DNA of 64,000 nt from Clostridia bacterium (GTDB lineage Bacteria; Bacillota; Clostridia; CAKSNL01; HGM11501). The stretch lies in assembly GCA_045588365.1 (NCBI GenBank), contig JAZNEB010000012.1, forward strand, positions 1,245 through 65,244, in the 5' to 3' direction. The position numbers and the translations under genes are program-made. The notes below the pieces were generated by a model. That model was given only the letters and a program-made list of their open reading frames with translations, was not told where the DNA came from and did not search any database. How positions within the stretch are numbered: the stretch's first letter is position 1; each line of letters opens with the position of its first letter. This document shows, in pieces, positions 2-29,910 of this stretch.

Positions 2-1798
2 TTGAACCGCCGTCAAAAGAACAACCCCTGCCTTTTGGGTGAGCCGGGTGTCGGTAAAACCGCCATTGCCGAGGGGCTGGCAGTTCGCATTATTGAAAAG
101 AAAGTTCCCGAAAAGCTTTTAGATAAGGAAATATACGCCCTTGATTTTACAGCCATTGTGGCGGGAACGCAGTTTCGTGGACAGTTTGAGGCACGATTAA
201 AAGGAATTATTGAGGAAGCAAAAAAGGTCGGCAATATAATTTTGGTTATCGACGAAATTCATAATATTATGGGAGCAGGAGATGCAGAGGGTGCTATGAA
301 CGCCGCCAATATCTTAAAGCCTGCCTTAGCCCGTGGTGCTGTGCAGATAATCGGCGCTACAACATTGACAGAGTACAGAAAGCACATTGAAAAGGACACC
401 GCCCTTGCCAGAAGATTTCAGACAATAGTGGTGGATGAGCCTTCGGTAGAGGAAACAGTAGAAATCTTAAAGGGGATAAGAGGCTACTACGAAAGCTATC
501 ACCATGTGATAATTTCCGACGAATGTTTAAGAGCGGCGGCAGTTTTGTCAGAGCGTTACTTAAACGAGAAATTTCTTCCCGATAAGGCTATCGACGTAAT
601 AGATGAGGCAGGCTCAAAGGCTAATTTGCAAAATGAAGCTCTGGCACGTCTTACGGTGTTAAAACGTGAGCTTAATTTAATGACAAACGAAAAAGAATCT
701 ATTGAAAATGACGACTCCATTGAATATTATAAAAAGATGTCCGAGTATAAGACTAAAGAGGAGCAGCTCTTAAAAGAAATTGAGGAGCTTGAAAAGGCAA
801 GCGATTATACGATTCTTGCCGTTGAGCACATCGCATCGGTTATCGAAAATATGACAAAGATACCTGTACAGAAAATAACCGAGCTTGAAACGGATAAGCT
901 TTTATCTTTAGAGGATATTCTCCATAAAAGGGTAATAGGACAGGACAAGGCGGTATCTGCCGTAGCAAGGGCAATAAGGAGAAACCGTGCGGGACTTTCC
1001 AAAAAATTAAGACCTGCCTCCTTTATATTCGTGGGTCCCACAGGAGTGGGCAAGACCGAGCTTGCCAAGGCTCTTGCTGAGGCTATGTTTGACAGCGAGG
1101 ACTATATTATCCGCATGGATATGACCGAATATATGGAAAAGCATTCCGTTGCCAAAATCATCGGCTCACCTCCTGGATATGTGGGCTATGACGATGCAGG
1201 TCAGCTTACGGAGAAAATAAGGAGAAGACCGTATTCGGTTATTTTACTTGACGAAATAGAAAAGGCACATCCTGACATACACAACATTTTACTTCAGATT
1301 TTAGACGACGGAAGATTAACCGACAGCCACGGAAAGGTGGTAAGCTTTGAGCACGCCATAATAATAATGACCTCAAATGCAGGCTCCGACTGGAAGGGTT
1401 CGGGACTGGGCTTTACTCCCGACGAGGCAAAAGCGGATTCTGAAAAGGTTAAAAGAGCACTTAAGGACGTTTTCCGTCCAGAGTTTTTGAACAGAGTGGA
1501 TGAGGTTGTTGTCTTTGAGCGTATTAAAAAGGACGATGCCTTGAAGATTGTGGATATTCTTTTATCAGACATTGAGTTTATGCTTTCTGAAAAAGGAATA
1601 AAGCTTGCCGTAAATCAGGAGGCAAAGGAATATATCGCATCAAAGGGATACGACGATAAAAACGGAGCAAGACCCATGCGCCACCTCATTACCAACGATT
1701 TAGAGGACGTGGTGGCAGAAGCAATTATACGGGGAAAGCTTAAGGCGGGAGATATCTGCAATATAGGAATTGTGGATAACAAGATAGCAGTAATATAA
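2..1798 (+). CDS. clpC: ATP-dependent Clp protease ATP-binding subunit ClpC (N-terminally truncated by the window edge)
   Basis: Walker [10 protein letters not shown] lies at the very start of the window, and a second AAA module ([25 protein letters not shown]) follows. The short ClpC-type middle linker and the C-terminal ClpB_D2-small domain are present. The ORF has no start codon because it runs off the 5' edge. Confidence 0.88.
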
Positions 1799-1801
1799 AA
1801 A

Positions 1802-1830
1802 AATGACATTCGCTTGGCGAATGTCATTTT
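1802..1830. terminator. bidirectional rho-independent terminator between clpC (+) and prmC (-)
   Basis: Perfect hairpin atgacattcgc-ttgg-gcgaatgtcat, with an A-run on one side and a T-run on the other. Confidence 0.7.
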
Positions 1831-2645
1831 TTTCTTCCTGTAACAACTCTTGGGTTTTGTCCCAAATCATAAAGGACTTTTATATCCTTGAAATCCTTTT
1901 CTAAAATTTCCGAAACTTCCCTTGCCTGGTCAAAACCGATTTCAAAAATTATAAGCCCGTTTTCATTAAGGGAAGATATGGCTTTTTCTGTGATAACCCT
2001 GTAAAATATAAGTCCGTCCCTTCCACCGTCCAGAGCCAGAGTCGGCTCGAAATCCTTAACGTCAGAATCAAGAGTTTCCAAAACATCGGTTCTGATATAA
2101 GGCGGATTTGAAATGATGGCATCGAATTTTCCGGGGATTTCTTCTTTCAGAATATCAAGCCTTGAAAATTTAATGCTGACAGAGTTGTTTTCGGCATTGC
2201 ACCTTGCAATATCAAGGGCTTCATCACTTATATCCACGGCAGAAACATCTAAATCTTTTCCAAACTTCGCTAAAGAAACGGCTATTGCACCCGAGCCCGT
2301 GCCGATATCTAAAACCGAGCCTTTACAGTTTTCTATGGCGTATTCAACCAAGGTTTCCGTATCGGGTCGGGGAATGAGCACGCCTTTTTTTACAGAAAAA
2401 GTAAGTCCCATAAATTCCTTTTTTTCAAGGATGTAGGCCATGGGTTCTGAATTTTTCCTTCTTTCCAGACAGGTCTTAAATAAATCAAGATTCTCTTCTG
2501 AAAGGACTTCATCTCTGTTTTTTATGAGAAAAAGCTTATCGCAGCCTAAAACCTTTTCCAAAAGAAGTGAAGCATCAAGAGAAGCTGAATCACTTACATC
2601 TTTAAGAAAAGAAGTGCCGAAGCGCAAGGCTTCCTTGATTACCAT
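1824..2645 (-). CDS. prmC: peptide chain release factor N5-glutamine methyltransferase PrmC/HemK
   Basis: SAM-binding motif VLDIGTGSGAIA and catalytic NPPY motif (ISNPPYIRTD). Confidence 0.88.
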   Translation of the reverse strand: MVIKEALRFGTSFLKDVSDSASLDASLLLEKVLGCDKLFLIKNRDEVLSEENLDLFKTCLERRKNSEPMAYILEKKEFMGLTFSVKKGVLIPRPDTETLVEYAIENCKGSVLDIGTGSGAIAVSLAKFGKDLDVSAVDISDEALDIARCNAENNSVSIKFSRLDILKEEIPGKFDAIISNPPYIRTDVLETLDSDVKDFEPTLALDGGRDGLIFYRVITEKAISSLNENGLIIFEIGFDQAREVSEILEKDFKDIKVLYDLGQNPRVVTGRKK

Positions 2646-3580
2646 TTGTCATTTTCTCCTTCTTCGGGCAGGACAGGTGTCATTGCGGCAATGGCAATTT
2701 CAATCATGGAATCGTCAGGCTCTTTCGTGGTTATTTTCTGAAGCAAAAGTCCGGGTTTGCTTAAAAGGGCAACTATTTTACTTTCGCTTCTGCCAGCCCA
2801 TTTTATAATTTCAAAGGAAACTCCTGCAATAAAGGGAAGACATAAAAGCTTTATTATGATACGAAGCCATATAACGTCTACCTTTACAAATGCGAAAACC
2901 AGAATACTGATTAAAAGAACAAAAACAAGGAAGCTGGTTCCGCAACGGGGGTGGAGTCTGCTCTGGTTACGGCAGTTTTCCACGGTAAGGGGAAGACCTG
3001 CCTCGTAGCAATAAATTGTCTTATGCTCTGCGCCGTGATACATAAATACACGCTTTACGTCCTTTTGCATGGTGCATAAAAGAATGTAGCCCAAAAAGAT
3101 TACAATTCTCGAAACACTTTCGGCAATGCTCCTGATAACTGCTATTGTGTCGGAAGATGCAGATTTGAATAAAAAGGCAATTCCCTCACCAATAAGCATG
3201 GGGAGGAGGAAGAAAAGTCCTATGCTCATTAAAATGGCAAGTACAACAGAAAAGTAAATTACAACATTTTTAAGGTTGTCCCCGAATTTCTTTGAAAGCC
3301 ATGCTTCAAATTTTGATTCGGATTCCTCTTCCTCTATATCCACAAATTCAGCACTCCATAAAAGGGCCTTCATGCTTGTAACCATAGAAACAAAAAAAGC
3401 AATAATTCCTCTTATAACGGGGATTTTACTCCATAAACTTTTATTTATCTCTATATCGGAAACCTTAAGCTCAATTTCTCCGTCGCTTTTTCTTACGGCA
3501 ATGCCCATTTTGGACGGGCCTCTCATCATAATTCCTTCAATCAGGGCAGAACCGCCTATTGAGGTTTTTTTCTTTTCCAT
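2639..3580 (-). CDS. DUF1385 family protein (YqhQ-like membrane-associated protein commonly encoded next to prmC)
   Basis: N-terminus GGSALIEGIMMRGPSKMGIAVR and motif YHGAEHK, followed by several TM helices. Its start overlaps prmC by 7 nt, consistent with an operon. Confidence 0.65.
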   Translation of the reverse strand: MEKKKTSIGGSALIEGIMMRGPSKMGIAVRKSDGEIELKVSDIEINKSLWSKIPVIRGIIAFFVSMVTSMKALLWSAEFVDIEEEESESKFEAWLSKKFGDNLKNVVIYFSVVLAILMSIGLFFLLPMLIGEGIAFLFKSASSDTIAVIRSIAESVSRIVIFLGYILLCTMQKDVKRVFMYHGAEHKTIYCYEAGLPLTVENCRNQSRLHPRCGTSFLVFVLLISILVFAFVKVDVIWLRIIIKLLCLPFIAGVSFEIIKWAGRSESKIVALLSKPGLLLQKITTKEPDDSMIEIAIAAMTPVLPEEGENDKW

Positions 3581-3922: not shown

Positions 3923-6900
3923 ATGACGGCAAGAAAAGTTACGGCAGTATTACTTGCGATGCTCATGGCGGCAACGGGATTTACCGCTATGGTCGGAAAT
4001 GATGCTTACGCCAGTGCAAGCACTACGTTTAACGCTCTGGAATTTGACTATGACAGAAACAACGTATATGCTGGTTTTCTGGAAAAGCACTCAGATGCGG
4101 AAAGACCCGAGGCGGAGGTTTTGGTTTTGGGTTCCGCATTTGACAGTGCGAAAAGCTCTGCAGGTGTTACTGCAATAGAAAGCTTTGACGGAATTGACAA
4201 CGTTGCAGAAATAATGGAGGATGTTCAGAAGGCGGTATATGAGGTTAATGTACCTGAAGCCGGCTTATATAACATTTCCTATTCCGTAAGAAGCCATGAA
4301 GCCATTAAGAACGATATTGAATTCGGAGTTATGATAAACGACGAATATCAGTACAACGAGTCTATGGCTATAAGATCTTTCAGAGGCTTTAAAAACAAGG
4401 ATGAGGATTTCGGTATTGAAGCTGATGAAAACGGAAATCTTACGGCTAAGTTTTTGCAGGATAGAGGTAACGATTTAAGACCCAGACAGGTTAAGGATAT
4501 CAAGTGGAGAACCGAATGGATTTATGATGCTGAGGGACTTATTGAAGCTCCTTTGCTTTTCTACTTTGATGAGGGTGTAAACACCTTGAGCTTTGAAACT
4601 GTGGGCGAGCCCTTTTATCTTGCTGATATAAAAATTGCACAGTTTGTTGAGCCCAAGCCTTATAAAGAAGTTTTAGCAGAATATGAAGCTAAGGGCTACA
4701 AGAGTGTAAATTCTCAGATAAAGATTCAGGCTGAAACAGCAAACGAATTTTCTCATTCATCACTTTACCCCTTATCTGAGAGAAATAATCCTCAGATGGA
4801 ACCCAGCCACACAAGCAAGACCAGACTCAATGCATCAGGCGGTTCTAACTGGGGCAGTGCAAGAAGCTGGCTTAAGTGGACATTCACCGCTCCTGAATCA
4901 GGACTTTATAATCTGGCAATAAAGTTTGAGCAGAGCGACTATGTGGGTATGTTTGCCACAAGAAGCCTTAAGATTGACGGGGAATATCCTTTCCAGGAAA
5001 TGAAGTATCTCCGTTTCGGCTATGATTCAGACTGGCAGTTTTTAATTCCTTCCGATGAAGAAGGCAATCCCTATTACATATATCTTGAAAAAGGTGAGCA
5101 CACAATGCAGATGACAGTAAGCCTTGGCGAAATGGCATCCATTGTTGACAGACTCACAACAGTTGTATATAAGCTTAATAAAGTATACAGCGACGTGGTA
5201 ATGATTGCTTCAACCACTCCTGACCAGTACAGAGACTATTACTATACAAAGAATATCCCGACTTTGGATAGTGATTTGAGATGGGCGAGAGAAGAACTTT
5301 CCTCTATAAAGCAGGAAATTTTGGATATAACCGGAACAGGAAGCAACCAGACTGCTACACTGGAAACCTTTGTTCTTCAGCTTGATGCTCTTATTGCAAA
5401 GCCTGAGGGCTTCAGCAAGAGACTTGAAACCTTCAAAAACAATATAGCATCCATCAGCCAGTGGATTATAGACAATAAAAATCAGCCCATAAAAATTGAC
5501 TATTTTGTTCTTGGCGGAGATAACATGGAGCTTGAAGGAGCTAAGGCGGGATTTTTCAAGAGCCTTTGGTCCGGAACAAAGAGCTTCTTCGCATCCTTCT
5601 ATGAAGACTATGATGTTATAGGCGCAGTTGAGGGAGACGGAAGAAAGGTTAAGGTATGGATAAATACCGGCCGTGATCAGATAAACATTATAAATAATAT
5701 GATAAATGACGAATTTACTCCCGAGACAGGGGTAAACGTTCAGCTTGAGCTTGTACAGGGTAACATGATTGAGGCTACACTTGCAGGAAAAGGACCCGAC
5801 GTTGCTCTTATGATTGCATCTGACCAGCCTGTAAACTATGCTATACGAAATGCTCTTGTTGACCTTTCAAAGTTCGGTGAAATGGACTTGGACGGCGACG
5901 GAGTTAATGAAGTAAAATCCTTTGCTGATGTATTTGGAAGATTCCAGCATCAGAATTTTGAAGCCTTTGCATTCCAGATGAACGAGCATAAGGACGAGGA
6001 AAAGGAAAAAGAAGGCGAAATCTGGATCTGCGAAGTATGCGGAACAGAAAATAACCAGGGTATATGCACAACCTGTAACTACAAGAAATACTATGCATAT
6101 TATGCAATTCCCGAAACCCAGACCTTTAATATGATGTTCTACCGTAAGGACATTTTGGCGCAGCTTGGTCTCGGTGTTCCCGAAACATGGGATGATTTCT
6201 TCGCACTTTTACCCGTAATCAGAAGAAACAATCTGCAGATAGGTGTTCCTGCTGCCACAATGTATCAGATTTTGCTCTATCAGTATGACGGGGCTTACTA
6301 TACAGAAGACAAGCACGCATCAGGCTTTACCACACCTGAAGCAGAGGCGGCATTTATAAAGGTATCCGACTGTTTCGTAAAATACGATTTCCCCATTTCC
6401 TTCGACTTCTATACAAGATTCAGAAGCGGTGAAATGCCCATATCCATTCAGCCCTATACTCAGTACAACAGAGTTAATGCGGCAGCACCTGAAATTCAGG
6501 GACTCTGGGATATGACCAAGGTACCAGGAACAATCAGAGAAGACGGAAGAATGGACAACAGCCAGATAGTTACATCTGCAGGATGCATCATGTTTAATAA
6601 GACAGAGGATAAGGATGCAGCCTGGGCATTTATAGAATGGTACACAAGAGACGATATGCAGACCCGTTACGGTGAAGAACTTGAATCCGTAATGGGTGCG
6701 GCAGGACGTTATGCGGCTGCAAACTTAAAGGCATTCAACTCCCTTGCATGGACAAGAGAACAGACAAAGCTTCTGACAGAACAGATGGAACAGATTGTCG
6801 GTGTACCCGAGGTTCCCGGAAGCTATCTTACAGCAAGAACAATTACACTGGCATTCAACGATGCATATATTGAACTTGAAAATCCCTATAAGGCTCTGGC

Positions 6901-18976: not shown

Positions 18977-20266
18977 ATGGAAAAAGTAAAAAGAAAAACA
19001 TTGAGTTGGGTAAAGCTTGATAATGCGGCCAAGATTTATCCTGCGGCAAGAAGAAAAAACTGGAGCAATGTATTCAGACAGTCCGCAACACTTTCTGAGG
19101 AAGTGGACAAGGGTGTATTAAAGTCTGCCCTGGATGTAACCGTAAAGCGCTTTCCTTCCATTGCAGCCCGCCTGCGAAAGGGTGCTTTCTGGTACTATCT
19201 CCAGGAGGTGGAATATGCCCCCGAAATACAGGAAGAATACAGCTATCCTCTTACTTTTATGAGTAAAGAGGAAATGCGCAGGTGCGCCTTTCGTGTAATT
19301 GCATACCGAAACAGAATAGCTGTTGAATTTTTTCACTCCCTGACCGACGGAACGGGAGCTTTGGTGTTTTTGAAAAATCTGGTTGCCGAATATCTCCAGC
19401 AGAAATATGATATAAAAATCCCATTAGAACATGGGATAGTGGACAGAAGAGAGGCACCTAAAAAGGAAGAACTGGAAGATAGCTTTTTAAAGGTTGCGGG
19501 GGATTTGCCGCTTCCCAGAAAAGACACTGATGCATGGCGAATGAGCGGAGAAAGCGAGAGCGGAGGCTTCCTTAACCTCACCTGCTTCAAAATATCTGTC
19601 AGCGCTCTTTTGGATAAAGCTCATGAATACGAAACCACGCTAACCATATTTTTAAGTGCCGTAATGATGAAGGCTCTTGCAAATCTGCAGAAGGAAAAAA
19701 CGGTATCGTTAAAAAGGCAAAAGCCCATAAAACTGTTGATTCCAGTAAACCTAAGAAGTCTTTATCCATCGAACACCCTCAGAAATTTTGCAATGTTCAC
19801 AATTCCCGAGATAGACCAAAGACAGGGGGAATATACCTTAGATGAAATAATAAAGGTGATTTATCACAAAATGGGAACTGAGGTTACAAAGAAGCATATG
19901 AGCCGTGTTATTGCTGCAAATGTAAAGGATGAGAAAAATATGCTCTTGAGGGTAGTGCCTCTGCCCATTAAAAATGTGGTAATGAAAGCAGTTTTTGACA
20001 GTGTAGGGGAGAAAAAGGCCTGCCTTAATCTTTCCAATATGGGGCTTGTCAGATTGCCTGACATTATGAAAAAATATGTAACCAGAATGGATTTTATACT
20101 TGGTGTTCAGGCGGCTGCACCCTATAACTGCGGTGTTTTATCCTACGGTGATACCGTATATATCAATTTTATAAGAAATATAAGAAAGCCCGACCTTGAA
20201 AGACATTTCTATAAAGTCTTAAAAGAGCTTGGGATTGACGCAGTTTTAGAAAGCAACAGAAAGTGA
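18977..20266 (+). CDS. HxxxD-type acyltransferase (condensation-domain / WS-DGAT / PapA5-like fold), standalone
   Basis: Motif HSLTDGTG (HxxxDG) about 120 aa from the N-terminus. Size 429 aa. No adenylation or carrier domains nearby. Confidence 0.5.
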   Translation: MEKVKRKTLSWVKLDNAAKIYPAARRKNWSNVFRQSATLSEEVDKGVLKSALDVTVKRFPSIAARLRKGAFWYYLQEVEYAPEIQEEYSYPLTFMSKEEMRRCAFRVIAYRNRIAVEFFHSLTDGTGALVFLKNLVAEYLQQKYDIKIPLEHGIVDRREAPKKEELEDSFLKVAGDLPLPRKDTDAWRMSGESESGGFLNLTCFKISVSALLDKAHEYETTLTIFLSAVMMKALANLQKEKTVSLKRQKPIKLLIPVNLRSLYPSNTLRNFAMFTIPEIDQRQGEYTLDEIIKVIYHKMGTEVTKKHMSRVIAANVKDEKNMLLRVVPLPIKNVVMKAVFDSVGEKKACLNLSNMGLVRLPDIMKKYVTRMDFILGVQAAAPYNCGVLSYGDTVYINFIRNIRKPDLERHFYKVLKELGIDAVLESNRK

Positions 20267-20276
20267 GGCGGGAAGA

Positions 20277-20969
20277 ATGTATTGTATAAAATGCGGAGCA
20301 AAGCTTGAGACAAGCGAAGGTGTTTGTCCCTTGTGCGGCACAAGGGTGTATCATCCTGATATTACTATTGAAAAAGAAAAAAAGCTTTATCCTAAGGATA
20401 AAATGCCAAAGGTAAAGCACCGTTCCGCCATGTTTAACGGGGCAATTATAATAATGTTTCTTATACCCCTGGTGGTTTCCTTTCTGGCGGATTATAACTT
20501 CGACGGAGTGATTGAATGGTTCGGATATGTTTTTGGTGCACTTATCATAGGGTATAGTGCATTCGCTCTGCCTCTGTGGTTTAAAAGGCCCAATCCCGTT
20601 ATTTTCACTCCCTGCGTTGCGGCGGAAACAGTGGGATATCTTTTTTACATAAACCAGGTAACAAAGGGAGATTGGTTCCTCTCCTTTGCATTCCCCGTTG
20701 CCGGAGGCTTCGGTCTTATTGCAACCGCCGTTGTAACCTTACTTCACTACATTAAAAAGGGAAGACTTTATATATGGGGCGGAGCATTCACTCTTACGGG
20801 ATGCTTTGTTATGCTGATAGAATTTTTTATAGTTATAACCTTTGATATTGAGTTTTTGGGCTGGTCCTTGTATCCTCTTTCGGTGCTTGTGCTTTTAGGA
20901 GGACTCTTGCTCTATCTGGCAATCAATAAATCAGCTCAGGAGGTTATGGAAAGAAAGCTTTTCTTTTAA
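20277..20969 (+). CDS. zinc-ribbon domain membrane protein
   Basis: N-terminal CIKCGAKLETSEGVCPLCG zinc ribbon followed by about 5 TM helices. Confidence 0.5.
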   Translation: MYCIKCGAKLETSEGVCPLCGTRVYHPDITIEKEKKLYPKDKMPKVKHRSAMFNGAIIIMFLIPLVVSFLADYNFDGVIEWFGYVFGALIIGYSAFALPLWFKRPNPVIFTPCVAAETVGYLFYINQVTKGDWFLSFAFPVAGGFGLIATAVVTLLHYIKKGRLYIWGGAFTLTGCFVMLIEFFIVITFDIEFLGWSLYPLSVLVLLGGLLLYLAINKSAQEVMERKLFF

Positions 20970-21011
20970 TAGAATAAGGAAGAAAAAATACTTTGCATAA
21001 AGGAGTATATT

Positions 21012-22154
21012 ATGAGAAAAATTGTGGTAGCAATTGATTCTTTCAAGGGAAGCCTTTCTACATTTGAGGCAGGTAATGCAATAAAGGAAGCGGCAAAAGA
21101 AGTATATAAGGATGCAGAGGTTGTAATATCTCCCATTGCTGATGGCGGAGAGGGCACGGTTGAAGCCATTGTAACTGCATCAGGCGGAGAATTTGTAAAA
21201 ACGGTTGTCAGCAATCCTTTGGGGAAAAAGATTGAGGCTTTATATGGTTTTATACCGAATAGGAAAACAGCCATAATTGAGATGTCTGCTGCTTCGGGCA
21301 TCACATTGATAAATGACAGCGAAAGAAACCCCCTTAATACCACAACTTTTGGAGTTGGGGAAATGATTTTGGATGCCACAGCAAAAGGATGCCGTAAATT
21401 TATTATAGGAATAGGCGGAAGTGCAACAAACGATGGTGGCGTGGGAATGCTTCAGGCACTTGGTTTTGAATTTCTGGATAAAAACTGAGAGCAAATTTCA
21501 CTTGGAGCAAAAGGGCTTAAAGACCTTGTTGCAATAAGGACGGATAATGCCGCAAAGGAACTTAAGGAATGCTCCTTTTGTGTGGCGTGTGATGTGAAAA
21601 ATGTTCTTTGCGGAGAGGAAGGCTGCAGTGCCATATACGGACCGCAAAAGGGTGCAACTCCCCGAATGATAAAAGATATGGACTTGTGGCTTGGAAATTA
21701 TGCAAAGCTTACAAAAAAAGTAATTCTTAAATCAGATGCAAACGCTCCGGGAACAGGAGCGGCAGGTGGAATGGGGTTTGCTCTGCTGTCCTACCTTAAT
21801 GCAACATTAAAATCAGGAATTGAACTTGTTATAAACGAAACAGAGCTTGAAAAGCACATAAAAGATGCGGATTTGATTATAACAGGCGAGGGCAGACTTG
21901 ACGGCCAGTCCTACATGGGTAAAGCGCCTGTAGGAGTAGCTAAGCTTGCTAAAAAGTATAATAAAACGGTGGTTGCCTTTTCAGGATGCGTAACAGATGA
22001 TGCGGTTTTGTGTAACGAACACGTAATTGATGCATTTTTCCCGATTGTGAGAAAGCCATGCACTTTGGAAGAAGCCATGAATGTTGATAATGCCTGTAAG
22101 AACTTAAAAGATACAGCAATACAGGCGTTCAGATTGTTAAATACAAGGGCTTAA
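21012..22154 (+). pseudogene. glxK: glycerate kinase interrupted by a single in-frame TGA (codon 159, at 21486-21488)
   Basis: N-terminal part (VVAIDSFKGSLS) and C-terminal part (YGPQKGATP, ITGEGRLDGQS) are in the same reading frame. They are separated only by one TGA, and the translation continues to resemble glycerate kinase across it. Confidence 0.8.
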
Positions 22155-22226
22155 GTGTGCATTGCGAAGCAATGCAGCGATATATGCTAAAGCAATCGAA
22201 GATTGCATATCAACTAGCTCTTTAGT

Positions 22227-22243
22227 CCTGACTTGACACGAGT
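22227..22243 (+). repeat. 17-bp direct repeat copy 1 (cctgacttgacacgagt)
   Basis: Identical to 24784-24800. It contains a TTGACA hexamer and lies about 60 nt upstream of the start of the zinc-ribbon/nuclease gene. Confidence 0.8.
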
Positions 22244-22306
22244 AAAAATTGTGTCGAATGGTGCTGAATGATGCCAAATAGTGTTGAAAAATGAAATTAA
22301 AAGGAG

Positions 22307-23796
22307 TTGAGTATTATGGCAGAAAAGAAAGAAAAAAGATATGTGAGCGATAATGCTCAACTTATGGCTGAATGGGATTGGGAGAAAAATGATGAATTAA
22401 ATTTCTATCCTGAAACATTAACTCTTGGTAGCCATAAAAAAGTATGGTGGAAATGCAGCAATAGACACGAGTGGCAAGCAACGATAAAAGATAGAAATAG
22501 AGGTCGTGGCTGCCCTTATTGTACAAGCCAAAAACTTCTAAAGGGCTACAACGATTTGCAAACGATTAATCCGATTTTAGCAAAAGAATGGAATGACAAA
22601 AAGAATAATGGCTTAACACCTATGGATGTAATGCCTAACAGCCATAAAAAAGTATGGTGGAAATGTGACAAAGGGCACGAGTGGCAAGCAAGGATAGAAC
22701 ATAGAAATAACGGTCGCGGATGCCCTATTTGTAATGCTGAACGCACCACGTCTTTTCCTGAATATGCGATTATGTACTACCTTGAAAAATATGGTTTAGA
22801 TGTAGTGCATTTGTATAGAGAAAAAGGCTATGAATTAGATATTTATATTCCGTCTAAAAAGATTGCTATTGAATATGATGGTGGTTTTTGGCATGGAAAT
22901 AAAACAAAAAAAGATTTGGAAAAAAATCAAAAGTGTGTAAAAGATGGGATACAATTATATAGAATAAGAGAAGGATTAACATCGTTGAAAGGGAGTTCTA
23001 TAGACTATATTGTTCAAGAAAAACAGAAAGATTTACCCAAAATACTTAAAGAAGTTTTAAGCAAGATAATCGGAACGGATGTTGATGTTGATATAGAAAG
23101 AGATGCTATTCCTATAGAGAATTTGAGGGAATACACTGAAAAAGAAAAATCCATTTTGTTTTCTAATCCAAAGGTAGCTGCTGAATGGAATTATGAAAAA
23201 AATGGAAATTTGAAACCAGAGCACGTTACAGCTAATAGTAATAAAAAAGTATGGTGGAAGTGTAGCAAAGGACACGAGTGGCAAGCAACAATAGACAATA
23301 GAAATAACGGGAACGGATGTCCTTATTGCTCGGGTCGATATGCTGTTAAAGGCGAAAATGATTTACAAACAGCTAATCCAACTTTGGCAAAAGAATGGAA
23401 CTATGAAAAAAACAATGAAATGGCACCGATCGATGTAACTCCTAATAGCAATAAAAAAGTATGGTGGAAGTGTGACAAAGGACACGAGTGGCAAGCAACG
23501 ATAAATAATAGAAACAATGGAAGCGGATGTCCATATTGTGCAAGTCGGAGAGTCTTAAAAGGCTTTAACGATTTCAAACAGCTAATCCAACATTAGCAAA
23601 GGAATGGAACTATGAGAAAAATAATGGCCTATCTCCTATGAACGTAATGCCTAACAGCCATAAAAAAGTATGGTGGAAATGTAGCCAAGGACATGAATGG
23701 CAAGCGACAATAGCGAGTAGAAATGGTGGTCGAGGATGTCGCGAATGTACGAAGGAAAAGCGAAACATACATAAAAAAGGTATCGTTAAAAAATAA
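22307..23796 (+). pseudogene. tandem zinc-ribbon (DUF4379-like) repeat protein fused to a Vsr/DUF559-like PD-(D/E)XK nuclease fold, disrupted by a 1-nt deletion near 23574
   Basis: Five repeats of HKKVWWKC..GHEWQA.I..RN.G.GCPYC. The central region IAIEYDGGFWHG with ELDIYIP resembles very-short-patch-repair/DUF559 endonuclease folds. The frame changes after the 4th repeat where gatttcaaacag replaces the gatttacaaacag of the paralogous repeat. The shifted frame encodes a 5th repeat and ends at 23796. Confidence 0.6.
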
Positions 23797-23841
23797 GTAT
23801 TATTTGTAGTGATAAAATTTGAAATATTAGGAGAGTAACAT

Positions 23842-24561
23842 ATGGATGAAAGACTTGATAATGTTAAAACAGAACTTCATAATTATCAAGAAATAGAAAG
23901 TATAAAGACTAATCCCGTTGTGAAACTGGGAATTGGTTTAATGAAACAATATATTCCAATATTAGGTGAAATAATAGATTGTGGAATAGATAAAAATTTA
24001 GAAAAGAAACAAAAAGCAAAAAGAGAAGAATTAATAAGTATTATTTTAAGTGATGACAAACTTATTACAAGCGAAATGGTAAATGATACTGAGTTTATTA
24101 TTAATTTTTTCAAAACCATCGAGGCGGTAGATCGACTTGCTACAAATGATAAAATAGTGTATTTTGGAAATCTTTTTAAAAATGGATACTTAAATGAAGA
24201 TAGAATACAAGCTTATAAATTTGAAGAATACTTTAATATAATCAATTCACTTTCCTATAGGCAGTTGGACTTGCTTGCTCTATTACACACATATAATACA
24301 AAGGAATTTTTATGTGAAGATGAAAAGGAAGAAGATAGTAAGAGATGGATGTTATTTAAGGAAGATGCTTGTAAGATTTTTGATATAACTGGAGATGACT
24401 TAATAGCTATTTTAAAGTCTGCTGAAAAATCTGGATTATGTAAAGAAGTAGTTGGAGCAATATACGGTTATCATGGTGGTAGATTTGAAGCTACATCATT
24501 ATTAAAAGATTTTGTTTCTTTTACAATTTCTCGAAATTCTGCCTTTGAAAGCAACATCTAA
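23842..24561 (+). CDS. hypothetical protein (239 aa), no recognisable domain, AT-rich codon usage
   Basis: Intact ORF with RBS aggaga 7 nt upstream. Its composition is distinct from the flanking core genes. Confidence 0.35.
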   Translation: MDERLDNVKTELHNYQEIESIKTNPVVKLGIGLMKQYIPILGEIIDCGIDKNLEKKQKAKREELISIILSDDKLITSEMVNDTEFIINFFKTIEAVDRLATNDKIVYFGNLFKNGYLNEDRIQAYKFEEYFNIINSLSYRQLDLLALLHTYNTKEFLCEDEKEEDSKRWMLFKEDACKIFDITGDDLIAILKSAEKSGLCKEVVGAIYGYHGGRFEATSLLKDFVSFTISRNSAFESNI

Positions 24562-24783
24562 ATTTAATATATAAATAGTTTGCTGATTTATAATATTTAC
24601 ATATCGGGCAGGAAAATCTAACATTCCTGCGGGTTCTAAGGAAAAGTGTTAAGAGAAAAAGCAGTGAAAAATCAGGGGAAAGTAGTAGGTCCTAATACGA
24701 GCTTGCGAGTATCAAGGTTCTCCGAAATATAGAAATCTTTGATTTCGTTATATTTCGTGATGGTTCTTATTATTCACTGTTCG

Positions 24784-24800
24784 CCTGACTTGACACGAGT
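24784..24800 (+). repeat. 17-bp direct repeat copy 2 (cctgacttgacacgagt)
   Basis: Perfect match to 22227-22243, about 40 nt upstream of the GNAT gene start. Confidence 0.8.
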
Positions 24801-24838
24801 CGAAAGATGTTCAAAAATTGAAAAAAGCAGGTGATATT

Positions 24839-25410
24839 ATGGAAATAAAAATACCCCAAAAAGCAGAACAGGAAAAATACTATGATGAAATTCTTGATAT
24901 GCTTACTCTGGCGGATGATGAATTTGTACCGCCCTTATCTTTAAGAAGCTCAACGGTGCAATCTGACTTGAAAAACACCAAAAAGGTAGAAGGCGGAGTT
25001 CTTTCCTATTTTGAGGAAAAAAACAAAGAATTATGATTGCGAAAGAAGACGGGAAGACCGTTGCTTTTGTTGCATACAGAGAAAATTTCACAAACGAAAA
25101 AATTACAGAAGAGCATCTTCCGAATATCTACATTTCCACATTGATTGTGCGCCCGGAGGGACGGGGAATGGGGCTGACACAGAAAATGTATCAGACTTTA
25201 TTTTCAGAATATGAAAAAGCTTGGTTTTTTACAAGAACCTGGTCAACTAATATGGCACATATAAAAATTCTTTCAAAGTTTAATTTTGAGACGATGTGCG
25301 TGATTAAAAATGACAGGGGCGAGGGGATTGACACAGTTTATTTCAAAAAAAGCCCGAAAGATAGGAAGAAAAATAATGCAAAAAGTAATAGTGATTGGTT
25401 GTCCCGGTAG
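24839..25410 (+). CDS. GNAT family N-acetyltransferase, split into two overlapping ORFs at an A7 run (24818-25036 and 25033-25410)
   Basis: The downstream ORF carries GNAT motif A (IVRPEGRGMGLTQKM) and the beta4-beta7 core. The upstream ORF looks like the missing alpha1/alpha2/beta1. The junction is ttATGAttg at an a7 homopolymer (25018-25024). Confidence 0.55.
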
Positions 25411-25885
25411 TGGCAAAAGCACCTTTGGACGGGAACTTGCACGTATTACAGGTTTGCCCTTATATCACCTTGATATGATGTATTGGAATGAGGATAAAAC
25501 AACTGTTTCAAAAGAAGTTTTTGCAGAGCGGTTAAAAAAGGTAATGAATAAGTCTGAATGGATTATTGACGGCAATTATGAGGGCAGCATGGAAATGCGA
25601 CTTAAAGAGTGCGATACTGTTTTCTTTCTGGATTATCCCACCGACATATGTATTAAGGGAATTGAAGAAAGAAAAGGAAAGCCTCGCTCTGATATGCCCT
25701 GGATTGAAAATGATACTACGGACAAGGATTTTATTGCCTTTATAAAAAATTACAATATCGAAAGCAGACCGAAAGTTATTAACCTGTTGGAGAGGTATTC
25801 TTCAAAGAATATTATAATATTTCAAACCAGAGCAGAGTCGGAAAAATACTTATCGTTACTGAAAAATAAAGGCGTATGTAAATAG
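25373..25885 (+). CDS. P-loop NTPase of the adenylate-kinase-like / topology-modulation-protein family
   Basis: MQKVIVIGCPGSGKSTFGRELA Walker A at the N-terminus. Length about 170 aa. Confidence 0.6.
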   Translation: MMQKVIVIGCPGSGKSTFGRELARITGLPLYHLDMMYWNEDKTTVSKEVFAERLKKVMNKSEWIIDGNYEGSMEMRLKECDTVFFLDYPTDICIKGIEERKGKPRSDMPWIENDTTDKDFIAFIKNYNIESRPKVINLLERYSSKNIIIFQTRAESEKYLSLLKNKGVCK

Positions 25886-25894
25886 AAAGAAAAT

Positions 25895-25933
25895 GCCTCC
25901 CTTGCCTAAAGGGAGGGGGACCACCGAAGGTGG
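25895..25933. repeat. GC-rich tandem hairpin element (REP-like), left flank of the DUF559 gene
   Basis: Hairpins cctccctt-gcct-aagggagg, then ggg-acc, then ccacc-gaa-ggtgg. gcctcccttgcc (25895-25906) is the exact inverted complement of 26377-26388. Confidence 0.55.
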
Positions 25934-25944
25934 TGGAGGGATAT

Positions 25945-26349
25945 ATGGATAGAAAACATAATACGAATTTAACTGCTAATGCAAGAACTTTGCGTAAGAA
26001 TATGACAAAAGAAGAAAGACATCTTTGGTATGATTTCTTGAAAAGTTATCCCGTTAGATTTTTAAGACAAAAAGTAATTGATAATTATATAGCTGATTTT
26101 TATTGTCGTAGTGCAAGACTTATAATTGAACTTGATGGTTCACAACATTATGAGGAAAAAGGTTTGTTGAAAGATAAAATAAGAACTGAAAGAATTGAGA
26201 AACGAAACTTGACAGTTATCAGAATACCTAACAACGAAGTTAATAGGAATTTTGAGGGAGTATGTCGGTATATAAATAACGTTGCAGAAGAATCCCTCCG
26301 TCAGTCTTCGACTGACACCTCCCGGGAATCCCCCAGTCAACTTCGTTGA
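25945..26349 (+). CDS. DUF559 (Vsr-like) endonuclease-domain protein
   Basis: Motif LIIELDGSQH, and KNMTKEERHLWYDFLKSYPVRFLRQKVIDNYIADFYC matching the DUF559 consensus. RBS ggtggaggg precedes the ATG at 25945. Confidence 0.75.
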   Translation: MDRKHNTNLTANARTLRKNMTKEERHLWYDFLKSYPVRFLRQKVIDNYIADFYCRSARLIIELDGSQHYEEKGLLKDKIRTERIEKRNLTVIRIPNNEVNRNFEGVCRYINNVAEESLRQSSTDTSRESPSQLR

Positions 26350-26351
26350 CA

Positions 26352-26388
26352 GCCCCCTTTAGGCAAGGGGGCCGATGGCAAGGGAGGC
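26352..26388. repeat. GC-rich hairpin element (REP-like), right flank of the DUF559 gene; inverted relative to 25895-25919
   Basis: Hairpin gccccctt-taggc-aagggggc followed by ggcaagggaggc, the reverse complement of the left-flank sequence. Confidence 0.55.
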
Positions 26389-26452
26389 TTTGATGCGTTG
26401 TATCTAAATCTTATGACTCGAAATAATAAATGCTGCTTTAAGGAGTGGTGCT

Positions 26453-27313
26453 ATGTTAATCAAAAAATACGGATATTGCTATATAGATGACATTGCCTTC
26501 GGGCACAGTTTGATTGAACCGCCTATTGAATCGAACAGTCTTCACACCCATGAGATGTGCGAGATTTACTGTGTGTTCAAGGGCAGCGGAAGATATATAA
26601 TCGAAGGCTCGGAGCATAAGCTGGAAAAAGGAAAAGTAATTTTAATGAGACCGGGTGAATTTCACAAAGCTCATATAGAAGAGGACGAAACCTACGAAAG
26701 CTTTGTAATACATTTTCTTCCCGGACTGGTGGATTCCTTTGACCCGGAAAGGAAGCTTTTAAGACCTTTCTTTGAAAGATCCCTGGGGAAAAACAATGTA
26801 TATAGCCGCACCAATGTTGTGAACACTGTAATATACGAGCTTTTTAAGAGAATGGACGAATGCAAGGGAGATAATTATGATAACGGAGTAAAGGTTAAAG
26901 CCCTTTTGTTCTCGGTGCTTATTGAGCTTAATTCTCTTTTTGATGCAGCGCTTTATGAAGATACATCCGTAAAAAATAAACAGACCATTAAGATAGTTGA
27001 ATATATAAATTCCCATTTGACGGAGCCTTTGTCCATAGACAAAATTTGCACGAAATTCTTTATAAGCAGAACACAGCTTAACAGGAATTTCAAGGAAGCT
27101 ACAGGTACATCGGTATGGGAATACATCACCGCCAAAAGGCTTATGCAGGCACGAAACCTTATTATGAGCGGGATGGGAAGCGTTGAAGCTTCATCTAACT
27201 GCGGTTTTGGTGATTATTCGGCTTTTTACAGGGCATATATGAAAAAATACGGCATAAAGCCGTCGGACAAAATTGATGCCATCAAATACAATCCGAAAGA
27301 GGAAAGATTATGA
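26453..27313 (+). CDS. AraC family transcriptional regulator (cupin sensor + HTH)
   Basis: N-terminal cupin and a C-terminal AraC HTH (ISRTQLNRNFKEATGTSVWEYITAKRLMQARNLI). Confidence 0.85.
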   Translation: MLIKKYGYCYIDDIAFGHSLIEPPIESNSLHTHEMCEIYCVFKGSGRYIIEGSEHKLEKGKVILMRPGEFHKAHIEEDETYESFVIHFLPGLVDSFDPERKLLRPFFERSLGKNNVYSRTNVVNTVIYELFKRMDECKGDNYDNGVKVKALLFSVLIELNSLFDAALYEDTSVKNKQTIKIVEYINSHLTEPLSIDKICTKFFISRTQLNRNFKEATGTSVWEYITAKRLMQARNLIMSGMGSVEASSNCGFGDYSAFYRAYMKKYGIKPSDKIDAIKYNPKEERL

Positions 27314-29910
27314 AAAAATTTCTTATAATTGACGGAAACAGTATAATGAACCGTGCTTTTTACGGAATAAAGCTCCTTACAAATTCAGAGGGGATATATA
27401 CCAATGCGGTTTATGGATTTTTAAATATATTCTTTAAAAATATAGATGCCATAAATCCCGATTATGTGGCTGTAGCCTTTGACCTTCGTGAGCCCACCTT
27501 CAGACATAAGCGATATTTAGAGTATAAGGCTCAGCGAAAAGGGATGCCCGAGGAACTTTTTTCCCAGATGCCCATAATAAAAGAAGTTTTATCTGCCATG
27601 AACGTTAAAATTTTAGAGCTTCCGGGCTTTGAGGCAGATGATATTATAGGAACAATGGCAAAAAGATGCAATGATTCTGAAATCGAATGCAATATTCTGA
27701 CAGGAGACAAGGATGATTTGCAGCTTGCCACAAAAACCACTAAAATATATCTTACGGTTACATCAAAAGGCACCACCACAACGGAAGTGTACGACGAAGA
27801 TGCGGTTTTTGCAAAGTACAATGTTACCCCAAAGGAATTTATTGACGTTAAAGGACTTATGGGAGATGCCTCAGACAATATTCCTGGTGTCAGCGGAATA
27901 GGAGAGAAAACCGCCTTTTCCCTTATAAGTCAATATAAGAGCATTGACGGGGTATATGAAAATCTGGATACGGCAAAGCTTGGCCCTTCTGCGAAAAATA
28001 AGCTTATGGAAGGACGTGATATGGCGTATTTGAGCAAGGAGCTTGCCACAATAAATGTGGAAAGCCCCGTGGAGGAAACCATCGAGGACTGTGCGGCAGG
28101 GCCCTACGACAACCAGAAGCTCAAAGAAATTTTCACCCGTCTTGAATTTAAAAGCTTTATAGAAAGATTAAATGTGGAAAAAAACGAAAATGAAGAGTGT
28201 GAAAGTGCCGTTATATTAAAGGACGAAAAGGAAATAAAGGAAGCACTTTTAGGTCTTTCTGAGTTTATATATTACATTTTCACATCAGATAAAAATATAG
28301 ATGCCATCGCATTTTCCGGAAAGGATAAAACCTTTTATACAGAAGAAGATATTTCACTTTTTAAAGAAATTTTCGAAAACGAGAAAATTCCGAAAATATC
28401 CCACGGAATAAAGGATGATTTTGTACTTCTGGCAGAAAAGGGGATTTTAATAAAAAACTACACCTTTGACTCTGAAATCGGGGGATACATTTTGGATCCC
28501 ACCGCATCGGATTATAAATTATCACGTCTTTGCCTTGCTTATTTATCCCGTCTTTCCGAAGAAATAGAGGATGCTAAAAAAGGCTATTTCATAAAGGAAG
28601 CGGAGGATAAATTAAAGGTGGCAGGGGAGGTTATAAAAAATATAGCCGACCTTAAAAGTGTGATTACGGAAAAAATAAAGGAAAACAATCAGGAATTTTT
28701 ATTAAACGAGGTTGAAATTCCTTTAATTGAAGTCCTGGCGGATATGGAAATCCGTGGATTTCAGGTGGATAAAAACGAGCTTATCCGCTATGGTGAAGAG
28801 CTTGATATACGAATTAAATCCTTGGAAGACAGCATATATTTTATGGCAGGGGAAAATTTCAATATAAATTCTCCAAAGCAGATGGGGGTTGTTCTTTTCG
28901 AGCATTTAGGCCTGCCTGTCATAAAGAAAACCAAGACGGGCTATTCCACTGATGCAGAGGTTTTGGGAGAGCTTTCGGAAAAGTATCCAATAGTTGAAGC
29001 AATTTTGGAATACCGTCAGCTTACAAAGCTTAAAGGCACTTATGTTGACGGTATGCTTCCTTTGATAGATGATGAGGGCAAAATACACTCGACCTTCAAT
29101 CAGACAGTAACCGCAACGGGAAGAATAAGCTCCACAGAGCCTAATTTGCAGAATATCCCCGTGAGAATGGAAGAGGGAAGAAAGCTTCGGAAAATGTTTA
29201 CAGCAGAAAGTGAAGAGCGAATTTTGCTGGATGCGGATTATTCCCAGATTGAATTAAGGGTTTTAGCACATCTTTCAGGGGACAGTGCTATGCAAAAAGC
29301 CTTTAATGACAAAAAGGATATCCATCGTATGTGTGCCTCGGAGATATTCTCTGTACCCGAGGATGAAGTTACGGACAGCATGAGAAGAAGTGCAAAAGCC
29401 GTTAATTTCGGGATAGTATATGGAATAAGCGAATTCGGTCTTGCCAAGGACATTCATGTAACCAGAGCCGAGGCTAAAAGATATATGGAGGCGTATTTTA
29501 ACACCTATCCCAAAATAAAAGAGTTTATGGACTCCACCGTGGAAAGCACCAAAAAGACGGGCTTTGTAACAACTATGTTCGGCAGAAGAAGATACATTCC
29601 CGAAATTCTTTCGAGCAATTTCATTCAGCGCTCTTTCGGGGAACGTGCCGCAATGAACGCTCCCGTTCAGGGAACAGCGGCAGATATAATAAAGATTGCC
29701 ATGGTAAGGGTATATAAGGCTCTTTTGAAAGAGACAAAAAGTGCTCGCCTTCTTTTGCAGGTACACGACGAACTTATTGTGTCTGTAAATAAAGAAGAGG
29801 CAGATATGGCAGAAGAAATTTTAATAAGGGAAATGGAAAATGCGGCAAAACTCAGCGTGCCTTTGACAGCTGACGGAAACCGTGGATTTTCCTGGTATGA
29901 TGCAAAATGA
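27310..29910 (+). CDS. polA: DNA polymerase I
   Basis: 5'-3' exonuclease N-terminus, and polymerase motifs RRSAKAVNFGIVYGIS and QVHDELIV. Length 866 aa. Confidence 0.95.
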   Translation: MKKFLIIDGNSIMNRAFYGIKLLTNSEGIYTNAVYGFLNIFFKNIDAINPDYVAVAFDLREPTFRHKRYLEYKAQRKGMPEELFSQMPIIKEVLSAMNVKILELPGFEADDIIGTMAKRCNDSEIECNILTGDKDDLQLATKTTKIYLTVTSKGTTTTEVYDEDAVFAKYNVTPKEFIDVKGLMGDASDNIPGVSGIGEKTAFSLISQYKSIDGVYENLDTAKLGPSAKNKLMEGRDMAYLSKELATINVESPVEETIEDCAAGPYDNQKLKEIFTRLEFKSFIERLNVEKNENEECESAVILKDEKEIKEALLGLSEFIYYIFTSDKNIDAIAFSGKDKTFYTEEDISLFKEIFENEKIPKISHGIKDDFVLLAEKGILIKNYTFDSEIGGYILDPTASDYKLSRLCLAYLSRLSEEIEDAKKGYFIKEAEDKLKVAGEVIKNIADLKSVITEKIKENNQEFLLNEVEIPLIEVLADMEIRGFQVDKNELIRYGEELDIRIKSLEDSIYFMAGENFNINSPKQMGVVLFEHLGLPVIKKTKTGYSTDAEVLGELSEKYPIVEAILEYRQLTKLKGTYVDGMLPLIDDEGKIHSTFNQTVTATGRISSTEPNLQNIPVRMEEGRKLRKMFTAESEERILLDADYSQIELRVLAHLSGDSAMQKAFNDKKDIHRMCASEIFSVPEDEVTDSMRRSAKAVNFGIVYGISEFGLAKDIHVTRAEAKRYMEAYFNTYPKIKEFMDSTVESTKKTGFVTTMFGRRRYIPEILSSNFIQRSFGERAAMNAPVQGTAADIIKIAMVRVYKALLKETKSARLLLQVHDELIVSVNKEEADMAEEILIREMENAAKLSVPLTADGNRGFSWYDAK

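Follow-up and report, generated by a model that had tools for sequence, protein, structure and literature searches.

A 64,000-nucleotide stretch of Clostridia bacterium DNA (contig JAZNEB010000012.1, positions 1,245 to 65,244; hereafter the window, whose own numbering is used throughout) carries, between glxK and a GNAT acetyltransferase gene, a 2.5-kb segment bounded by two identical copies of the 17-mer CCTGACTTGACACGAGT. This 17-mer belongs to a promoter-like module (PM) that is dispersed, strictly polar relative to genes and found ahead of unrelated genes, and the window's second copy directly follows a conserved element (E) whose hairpins covary. The two 17-mers are probably consensus copies of PM at the 5' ends of adjacent transcription units, with E at the 3' end of the unit, and not the duplication left by an insertion. 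An earlier note on this DNA had offered both readings, duplicated promoter/operator modules or target-site/att duplications of an integrated cassette; the first fits our results, and the second found no support, the 17-mer not being specific to the locus and no integrase or transposase lying in the segment or next to it. The arrangement appears to be new: in the databases and literature searched we found no Rfam family, no phage or plasmid match and no literature match for the module strings.

An exact 17-mer pair around an AT-rich segment

Both 17-mers lie on the + strand, at 22227-22243 and 24784-24800, and are exact, as had been claimed. They are the only two matches in the window, even with up to three mismatches allowed (shuffle mean 0.06), and a repeat finder lengthens the pair to 22 nt at 91%. 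Each copy contains a perfect TTGACA, again in agreement with the earlier description (22233-22238 in copy 1). The interior had been called AT-rich, and it is: the segment between the 17-mers has a GC content of 0.328, compared with 0.395 for the whole window, and windowed values of 0.26-0.34 across 22800-24600 contrast with 0.40-0.44 in glxK. The repeats had also been placed 40-60 nt from gene starts; the distances from repeat end to ATG are instead 72 nt (ATG at 22316) and 38 nt (ATG at 24839).

All features of the segment are on the + strand. PM copy 1 (22218-22291, nhmmer profile score 62) comprises the 17-mer, a TGTCGAA box at 22252-22258 and then the leader of a zinc-ribbon nuclease gene (22316-23796). 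The partner of this gene, encoding a 239-residue protein of a family without a name, occupies 23842-24561 and is followed by E (24562-24783, nhmmer score 158), here of type 1, with one 73-nt insert unit and without a left inverted repeat. PM copy 2 (24773-24844, nhmmer score 40) precedes the next transcription unit, that of the GNAT acetyltransferase (24839-25410, Pfam PF00583).

Spread of the 17-mer across genomes

We scanned a collection holding one genome per species and handled the matches as 8-kb blocks, the resulting loci bearing L-numbers. The exact 17-mer was found in at least 118 genome blocks. Counted from record titles, about 110 of the blocks among the matches listed belong to about 85 uncultured Clostridia/Oscillospiraceae metagenome-assembled genomes (MAGs). 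These MAGs derive from gut samples (goat, sheep, yak, deer, buffalo and others), and the genera Congzhengia, Ructibacterium, Aphodoplasma and Ornithomonoglobus are among them. A single MAG contributes up to four blocks, and one 252-kb contig holds three (L002, L053 and L037). Six to eight of the listed matches fall in unrelated phyla and are treated as chance because their flanks are dissimilar; seven matches in IMG/VR proved to be one unrelated GC-rich phage and were likewise set aside as chance. A metagenome scan with a pattern of the E end plus the box yielded 21 further contigs, one of them from human gut and one with four consecutive units. BLAST comparison of E and PM with phage and plasmid collections gave no match.

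This spread bears directly on the insertion reading. Under a single integration or transposition event, the 17-bp repeats would be the target-site duplication or att core of a 2.5-kb element between glxK and the GNAT gene, and a perfect direct repeat around an AT-rich, selfish-looking gene pair is what such an event would leave. The recurrence check proposed in the earlier note nevertheless counts against it, since the module stands ahead of many unrelated genes, in about 85 genomes among the matches listed, and this 17-mer is shared by well over 100 unrelated loci. In addition, Pfam and PADLOC found no integrase or transposase among the inner or flanking open reading frames (ORFs), copy 2 runs on without a gap from a 220-nt element that is also conserved at about 100 further loci, and 17 bp exceeds the known lengths of target-site duplications. 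We therefore regard a single insertion as extremely improbable. The 17-bp identity needs no duplication event. Both copies are consensus PM instances; by our count, only 10 of the 53 extra PMs recovered by a profile search of the same loci are exact, so that two exact 17-mers at one locus are unremarkable.

The promoter-like module

An alignment of 128 instances gives the order of the parts of PM: a T-tract comes first, then the 17-mer including TTGACA and a TGNCGAA box, and last the ribosome-binding site and start codon of the gene. The T-tract is present at -8 to -4 in 72 of the 128 instances (1.4-1.5 bits). The downstream part is moderately conserved, with the consensus aaGAATTnTGTCGAATgrTGnTGAA...GAAAGGnG...ATG. 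A TGNCGAA box follows within 45 nt in 66 of 120 distinct PMs, as against 1.5% of background windows; it lies at +9 in 41 cases, and GNYGAA units are phased 10 nt apart. The start codon usually comes 37-47 nt after the 17-mer, most commonly at 37-40 or 47 nt. We take the GAC-N17-CGAA arrangement to recall ECF (extracytoplasmic function)-type promoters, and the tandem TGNCGAA presumably recalls Spo0A boxes.

The genes behind PM are diverse. A co-oriented ORF lies 3' of the module in 83 of 85 cases, and the first ORFs of 82 PMs match 55 different Pfam families, among them fructose-1,6-bisphosphatase, TrkH, an ABC transporter, CAT, beta-lactamase, Abi_alpha, AAA_21/OLD ATPases and DMP19; many of the other PM-led ORFs encode small membrane or secreted proteins. 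At L119, a glxK-ECF-larA operon sits between PM and E. In the window, the TTGACA is a perfect -35 hexamer in both copies, and a promoter scan scored TTGACA-17 nt-AAAAAT of copy 2 at 10/12 as a sigma-70-type promoter ahead of the GNAT start codon at 24839.

One gene that recurs behind PM encodes a GGDEF/dCache sensor, with a long leader containing a 9-codon mini-ORF (MKKKIAFWS). This sensor gene is followed by a c-di-GMP-I (cyclic di-GMP) riboswitch (6958-7132 in L014 and 5668-5846 in L063, with an Rfam score of 60 bits in L063).

The E element

A conserved E of 170-290 nt precedes the 17-mer in 45 of the 128 PM instances, window copy 2 included. Profile searching of the loci recovered 99 copies, and that of the window a single one (24558-24800, score 158). 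An alignment of 58 copies divides E into six blocks. The first, which is optional, is an inverted copy of the 17-mer core, ACT[C/T]GTGTCAAGTC. The second reads AATTTAAAAGATTAGTTTGCCGAT...ATATTTACATAT...CGG; the third is hairpin P2, GCGAGAA-N9-TTCTCGC; and the fourth consists of GGGTTCTAA, a purine-rich stretch and TAGTAGGTCC. The fifth is made up of 73-nt units, each containing hairpins P4 and P5, whose number is zero, one or, at L043, four in tandem, and the sixth is TATTATTCACTGTTCT, after which the 17-mer begins directly. In the window, hairpins P1, P2 and P5 lie at 24582-24609, 24608-24630 and 24723-24757, respectively, and the 3' end of E reads ...TTATTCACTGTTCG, immediately before the 17-mer. 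The four-unit E of L043 (4782-5072) shows the insert behaving as an amplifiable repeat unit.

Hairpin covariation was found in two parts of the element. Pairing in P2 is kept through 16-17 double changes (GCGAGAA/TTCTCGC versus GCAGGAA/TTCCTGC), and 9 of the 13 one-sided variants are G-U wobbles on the sense strand. P5 occurs in three basal and two apical complementary versions. In the alignment of the 73-nt unit, which is itself structure-fitted and thus favours pairing, 94.9% of P5 cells are paired, compared with 35-46% with slid partners, and the 12 double-change cells in this same alignment were reached by none of 500 shuffles. The covariance model of the 73-nt unit finds 36 copies and matches the window at 24693-24767 with 83 bits. 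RNAalifold on the full E alignment predicted P2 as the sole hairpin, and the single-sequence fold of the window E is not exceptional (z = -1.7). Rfam gave no match over E at E <= 1 in window 20000-28000, where its lone match was a chance-level small RNA inside a DUF559 gene, nor at E <= 0.1 in eight E-rich loci.

Two candidate features of E were rejected. A conserved RNA stem between the left inverted repeat and the 17-mer is contradicted by the variant right ends …GACAAAAGT and …GACAAAATC, which are uncompensated on the left; for this reason we treat the left repeat and the 17-mer as inverted DNA sites. A promoter inside E, TTTACA-17-TAACAT, is present in type-1 copies only, type 2 having seven extra bases at that position.

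E, too, is polar relative to genes. On its 5' side E has a co-oriented ORF in 71 of 72 cases, at a median distance of 11 nt, and on its 3' side in 56 of 62. Every E that abuts a PM is on the same strand as that PM, with no flipped copy among the assemblies. This polarity weighs on a further explanation, in which E and the 17-mer would form a miniature inverted-repeat transposable element (MITE)-like unit or an inverton, a segment of about 200 bp with 14-bp terminal inverted repeats that transposes or flips and so switches the downstream gene. The inverted 14-mers on either side of the E core (55 of about 99 copies), the many intergenic copies and the many downstream genes for small membrane or secreted proteins would suit such an element. 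Its orientation is fixed, however; the left repeat is missing from the window E and many others, and no target-site duplications were seen at E borders. Moreover, insertion of E alone 5' of a resident PM is ruled out, as the upstream contexts of the same gene differ entirely (T-versus-E comparisons). A mobile or invertible E is thus very unlikely.

Units, arrays and mosaic junctions

The loci follow a regular pattern, namely PM, one to four ORFs, and E fused to the next PM, with up to four units in a row. Co-oriented arrays of two to four units occur at L016, L051, L056, L063, L085, L114, L117 and L146. The PM...E unit body has a median length of 990 bp (n = 50, range 175-3068), and unit GC is on average 6.3 points below that of the rest of the locus and lower in 46 of 49 cases. 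The window segment is one such unit, consisting of PM1, the nuclease gene, the 239-residue protein gene and E, after which PM2 heads the GNAT gene. E stays with its upstream gene: a type-1 E lies behind the 239-residue protein gene in the window, in L124-127 (73% amino-acid identity) and in L128.

Comparison of loci across species revealed 17 pairs with near-identical DNA 3' of the 17-mer. They represent five gene families: the GGDEF sensor (six species), the zinc-ribbon gene (window, L046, L062 and L117), and those of L031/L094, L032/L090 and L093/L108. The upstream regions of these pairs have no genes in common, even at the protein level, and in no pair of loci is there collinearity across the 17-mer. 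Three cassette proteins are common to units with non-homologous flanks.

Several observations sit poorly with a purely transcriptional role for PM and E. In the cross-species pairs, homology ends 0-1 nt from the 5' edge of the 17-mer, or only past the end of a shared E, and junctions this much more precise than random rearrangement predicts point to recombination at the 17-mer. The inverted 17-mer core, a 14-mer, opens 55 of about 99 E copies, which a pure promoter model leaves unexplained; it is missing from the window E and many other copies. PM copy 1 lacks a canonical -10, and so does the PM consensus, which offers GAATRA at a 17-nt spacer and AATGAT only at 18 nt; the promoter scan did not call PM copy 1; and E contains no obvious terminator.

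The main alternative is an integron-like cassette system, on balance unlikely and yet of some weight. The 17-mer would be the crossover core, and E with its inverted 14-nt left end an attC-like site. Units running from 17-mer to E would excise as circles and insert at resident 17-mers, with the recombinase encoded elsewhere, and the window repeats would be attL/attR-like products doubling as promoters. The circular junction expected from this model is ...CACTGTTCN joined directly to CCTGACTTGACA from a distant unit. The model accommodates the co-oriented arrays of up to four units, in each of which the ORF set is followed by E and the 17-mer; the short bodies with GC below their surroundings; contents that are mostly accessory or uncharacterized genes; the same gene and PM in unrelated upstream contexts across species, with the break at the 17-mer; and the cassette proteins shared between non-homologous flanks. 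The inverted core that opens many E copies is reminiscent of the attC R''/R' arrangement, and the strict polarity is likewise as for attC.

Against this model, the modules are dispersed and show no single platform, core metabolic genes are also headed by PM, and the window E has no left inverted repeat. Nor does E form an imperfect palindrome from end to end, its 170-290 nt containing the separate local hairpins P1, P2, P4 and P5. No consistently linked recombinase emerged: large serine recombinases occur at 5 of about 118 loci listed, with no enrichment shown, and the 25 families listed for the ORFs led by 82 PMs include no recombinase, a survey limited to the 8-kb blocks and without a systematic scan for tyrosine recombinases. 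Neither an empty site nor a circular junction was seen. Exact look-ups of two window flank proteins returned no record, the best glxK homologues are 77% identical and lie in neighbourhoods that are not syntenic, and a metagenome scan for the GNAT-side junction was empty; a syntenic empty site was not obtained because the collections hold no close relative of this genome. Classical integrons are not known from Bacillota. More specifically, gut Oscillospiraceae might possess a promoter-carrying, integron-like cassette system with PM and E as its recombination sites, in which a hypothetical recombinase captures and exchanges units at resident 17-mers; this proposal is a shade more doubtful still; in such a system the E RNA, or a single-stranded DNA structure, would be the cassette-borne partner site.

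At two loci, large serine recombinase genes that are 67% identical to each other (L081 127-3346 and L108 1494-2747) are directly followed by E, in the position of a cassette gene.

Cassette genes of the window

The earlier note had seen a zinc-ribbon/nuclease gene and a 239-residue protein in the segment. Both are there, with the qualifications that the nuclease gene is frameshifted and that its nuclease match falls below the cut-off. A 1-nt deletion near 23574 splits the gene into ORFs 22307-23596 and 23638-23796. The first ORF, taken from the ATG at 22316, contains four DUF4379 (treble-clef zinc finger) stretches (PF14311, E 1.9e-89), and the second contains, by sequence, one more WWKC...C..C zinc-finger repeat. 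The central region weakly resembles MTES_1575/Vsr-like PD-(D/E)XK nucleases (PF18741, 2.1e-5, below cut-off). An intact 559-residue homologue, 68% identical to the window copy, matches PHROG 559/681/3339, annotated as HNH/homing endonuclease (E 3.6e-63 to 9e-18), and PADLOC gave a weak 'homing endonuclease' match for the nuclease (E 0.0016). Solved structures among its relatives are limited to DUF4379 mitoribosomal factors.

The 239-residue protein has 26 homologues and matches nothing in Pfam, PADLOC, NCBIfam or PHROGs. Its gene lies directly 3' of the nuclease gene in L124-127 and L137 as well. An AlphaFold2 model (predicted local distance difference test score 70) is confident in the C-terminal half, which is predicted to be winged-helix-like; MarR/ArsR/CodY winged helices head the Foldseek results, none of them significant (E >= 0.08). 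The defence-database check that the earlier note had called for gave no support, as no PADLOC defence-system model matched either cassette protein. The likeness of the segment to a selfish or accessory islet holds: it is AT-rich, encodes a homing-endonuclease-like nuclease and belongs to a class of AT-rich PM...E units found in differing contexts. We infer that the pair consists of a selfish or defence-type nuclease and a DNA-binding partner.

The same gene pair occurs at L124 under a classical TTGAAA-17-TATAAT promoter, not PM, with a large serine recombinase next to it. Islands that have neither PM nor E contain more distant homologues (47-68% identity), which marks PM and E as lineage-specific additions to genes that circulate bare as well.

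Further observations concern these homologues. On the L124 metagenome contig, the nuclease, 239-residue protein and E unit stands directly 3' of the recombinase gene, and direct repeats of about 90 nt, each with a terminator hairpin, flank it (3026-3110 and 6040-6125). The variable islands of L122, L140, L141 and L142, which contain Fic, Bro-N, resolvase, TIR_2, phage-integrase or MuF_C toxin genes, also encode distant homologues of the 239-residue protein; the partners of these homologues are an uncharacterized 247-residue protein and a metallophosphatase instead of the nuclease. The zinc-ribbon leader and first ~25 codons (window 22259-22390) are near-identical in nucleotides with those of L046, L062 and L117, thus in four species, and beyond that stretch protein identity is only 62-70% with L046 and L062 and lower with L117. 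The pattern suggests a conserved RNA feature in the 5' region or recombination limited to it.

Neighbouring sequence

Three gene disruptions fall within 4 kb. In glxK, an in-frame TGA at 21486-21488 replaces the Gly codon of relatives (…LDKN*EQ versus …LDKNGNQ); the zinc-ribbon gene bears its 1-nt deletion; and the GNAT gene shifts frame within an A7 run (25017-25023). They reflect either decaying genes or assembly errors.

Just 5' of PM copy 1, at 22160-22215, are short GAA-loop hairpins (GCATTGC-GAA-GCAATGC and GCAATC-GAA-GATTGC) and GCGATAT motifs. Like hairpins and GCGATAT repeats adjoin the 17-mers of L044, L084, L023, L080 and L113.

Downstream of the GNAT gene, a DUF559 endonuclease gene (25946-26349) has perfect 15-nt inverted repeats on either side (25892-25913 and 26355-26391), extendable to 22 nt as CCTCCCTTGCCTAAAGGG / CCCTTTAGGCAAGGGAGG. 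Similar GC-rich hairpin leaders lie 3' of PMs in L042, L071, L087, L095, L105 and L115, and DUF559 homologues with those leaders were confirmed by tblastn at L095, L105 and L113. The gene and its inverted repeats may be a second small recurrent unit.

Discussion

On the anatomical evidence assembled here, the best-supported mechanism is one in which PM would act as a promoter/operator box and E as a sense-strand structured RNA at the 3' ends of units. In the window, the first unit would run from PM1 through the zinc-finger nuclease gene and its 239-residue partner to E, and PM2, abutting E, would head the GNAT unit. PM may recruit RNA polymerase through its TTGACA box, with the T-tract acting like an UP element, and the TGNCGAA box could be either a non-canonical -10 or a regulator site. 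As part of the 3' untranslated region, E might serve in processing, stability or insulation. The AT-rich gene pair would have been horizontally acquired, and would carry, or have been placed between, host-specific PM and E signals; such units may be reshuffled between genomes, with breaks at the 17-mer.

If this picture is true, a clade of abundant uncultured Clostridia of the animal and human gut marks its transcription units with a near-invariant 5' promoter box and a structured 3' element of about 200 nt. AT-rich accessory genes (nucleases, OLD/Abi-type ATPases, CAT, beta-lactamase and surface proteins) would be held in such units and recur across contexts. The pair of signals would then make accessory cassettes and expression units searchable by their signature in MAGs without genetics, and would provide a new candidate structured RNA family and a testable candidate for cassette exchange in Bacillota. 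There is also a lesson for reading genomes, in that a perfect short direct repeat around an islet can be a clade-wide regulatory module present twice and not an insertion scar.

Comparison with known systems

PM and E are akin to dispersed intergenic punctuation or to cassette-associated repeats, and each likeness has its limits. With integron cassettes and their attC sites, such as the Vibrio cholerae repeats, they share co-oriented arrays of short, mostly accessory or uncharacterized ORFs, a structured repeat after each ORF set that in many copies has inverted cores at its ends, mosaic junctions at the core and strict polarity. Unlike in integrons, no IntI-type integrase or single attI platform was found in the 8-kb blocks, and the sites are dispersed over the genome. 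An attC site is one imperfect hairpin of ~57-141 nt with L''/L' boxes, whereas E spans 170-290 nt, is conserved in sequence and has several local hairpins; each unit also has its own promoter-like box, and many E copies are without the left inverted core.

High copy number, restriction to a clade, an intergenic position, -35-like hexamers, RNA hairpins and an influence on the shape of transcription units are features in common with the Neisseria Correia/NEMIS elements, the pneumococcal BOX/RUP elements and the enterobacterial REP/BIME/ERIC repeats. PM and E differ from these in their fixed orientation to flanking genes, in having no target-site duplication, in a two-part logic of 5' box and 3' element, and in the inheritance of E with its upstream gene.

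ECF-type promoters have the form AAC-N16-17-CGT, and the 0A boxes of Spo0A are TGNCGAA in tandem, as at abrB. PM appears to resemble such alternative-sigma or global-regulator promoters in its long conserved -35, the fixed spacing to a GTCGAA-type box (GAC-N17-CGAA), the 10-nt phasing and the many envelope-protein genes that it precedes. It departs from the ECF and Spo0A regulons in having TTGACA and not AAC as its -35 and in a gene set that includes core metabolism, and we identified no sigma factor or regulator for it.

Finally, the cassette nuclease is comparable to the free-standing, homing-endonuclease-like genes of phages (PHROG 559/681/3339) and to Vsr/DUF559/MTES_1575 nucleases, with DUF4379 repeats and an ...ELDIYIP...IAIEYDG..WH core. 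Unlike the phage homing endonucleases, it is chromosomal, paired with a partner of 239 residues that is predicted to be winged-helix-like, frameshifted in the window and located outside any intron, intein or phage genome.

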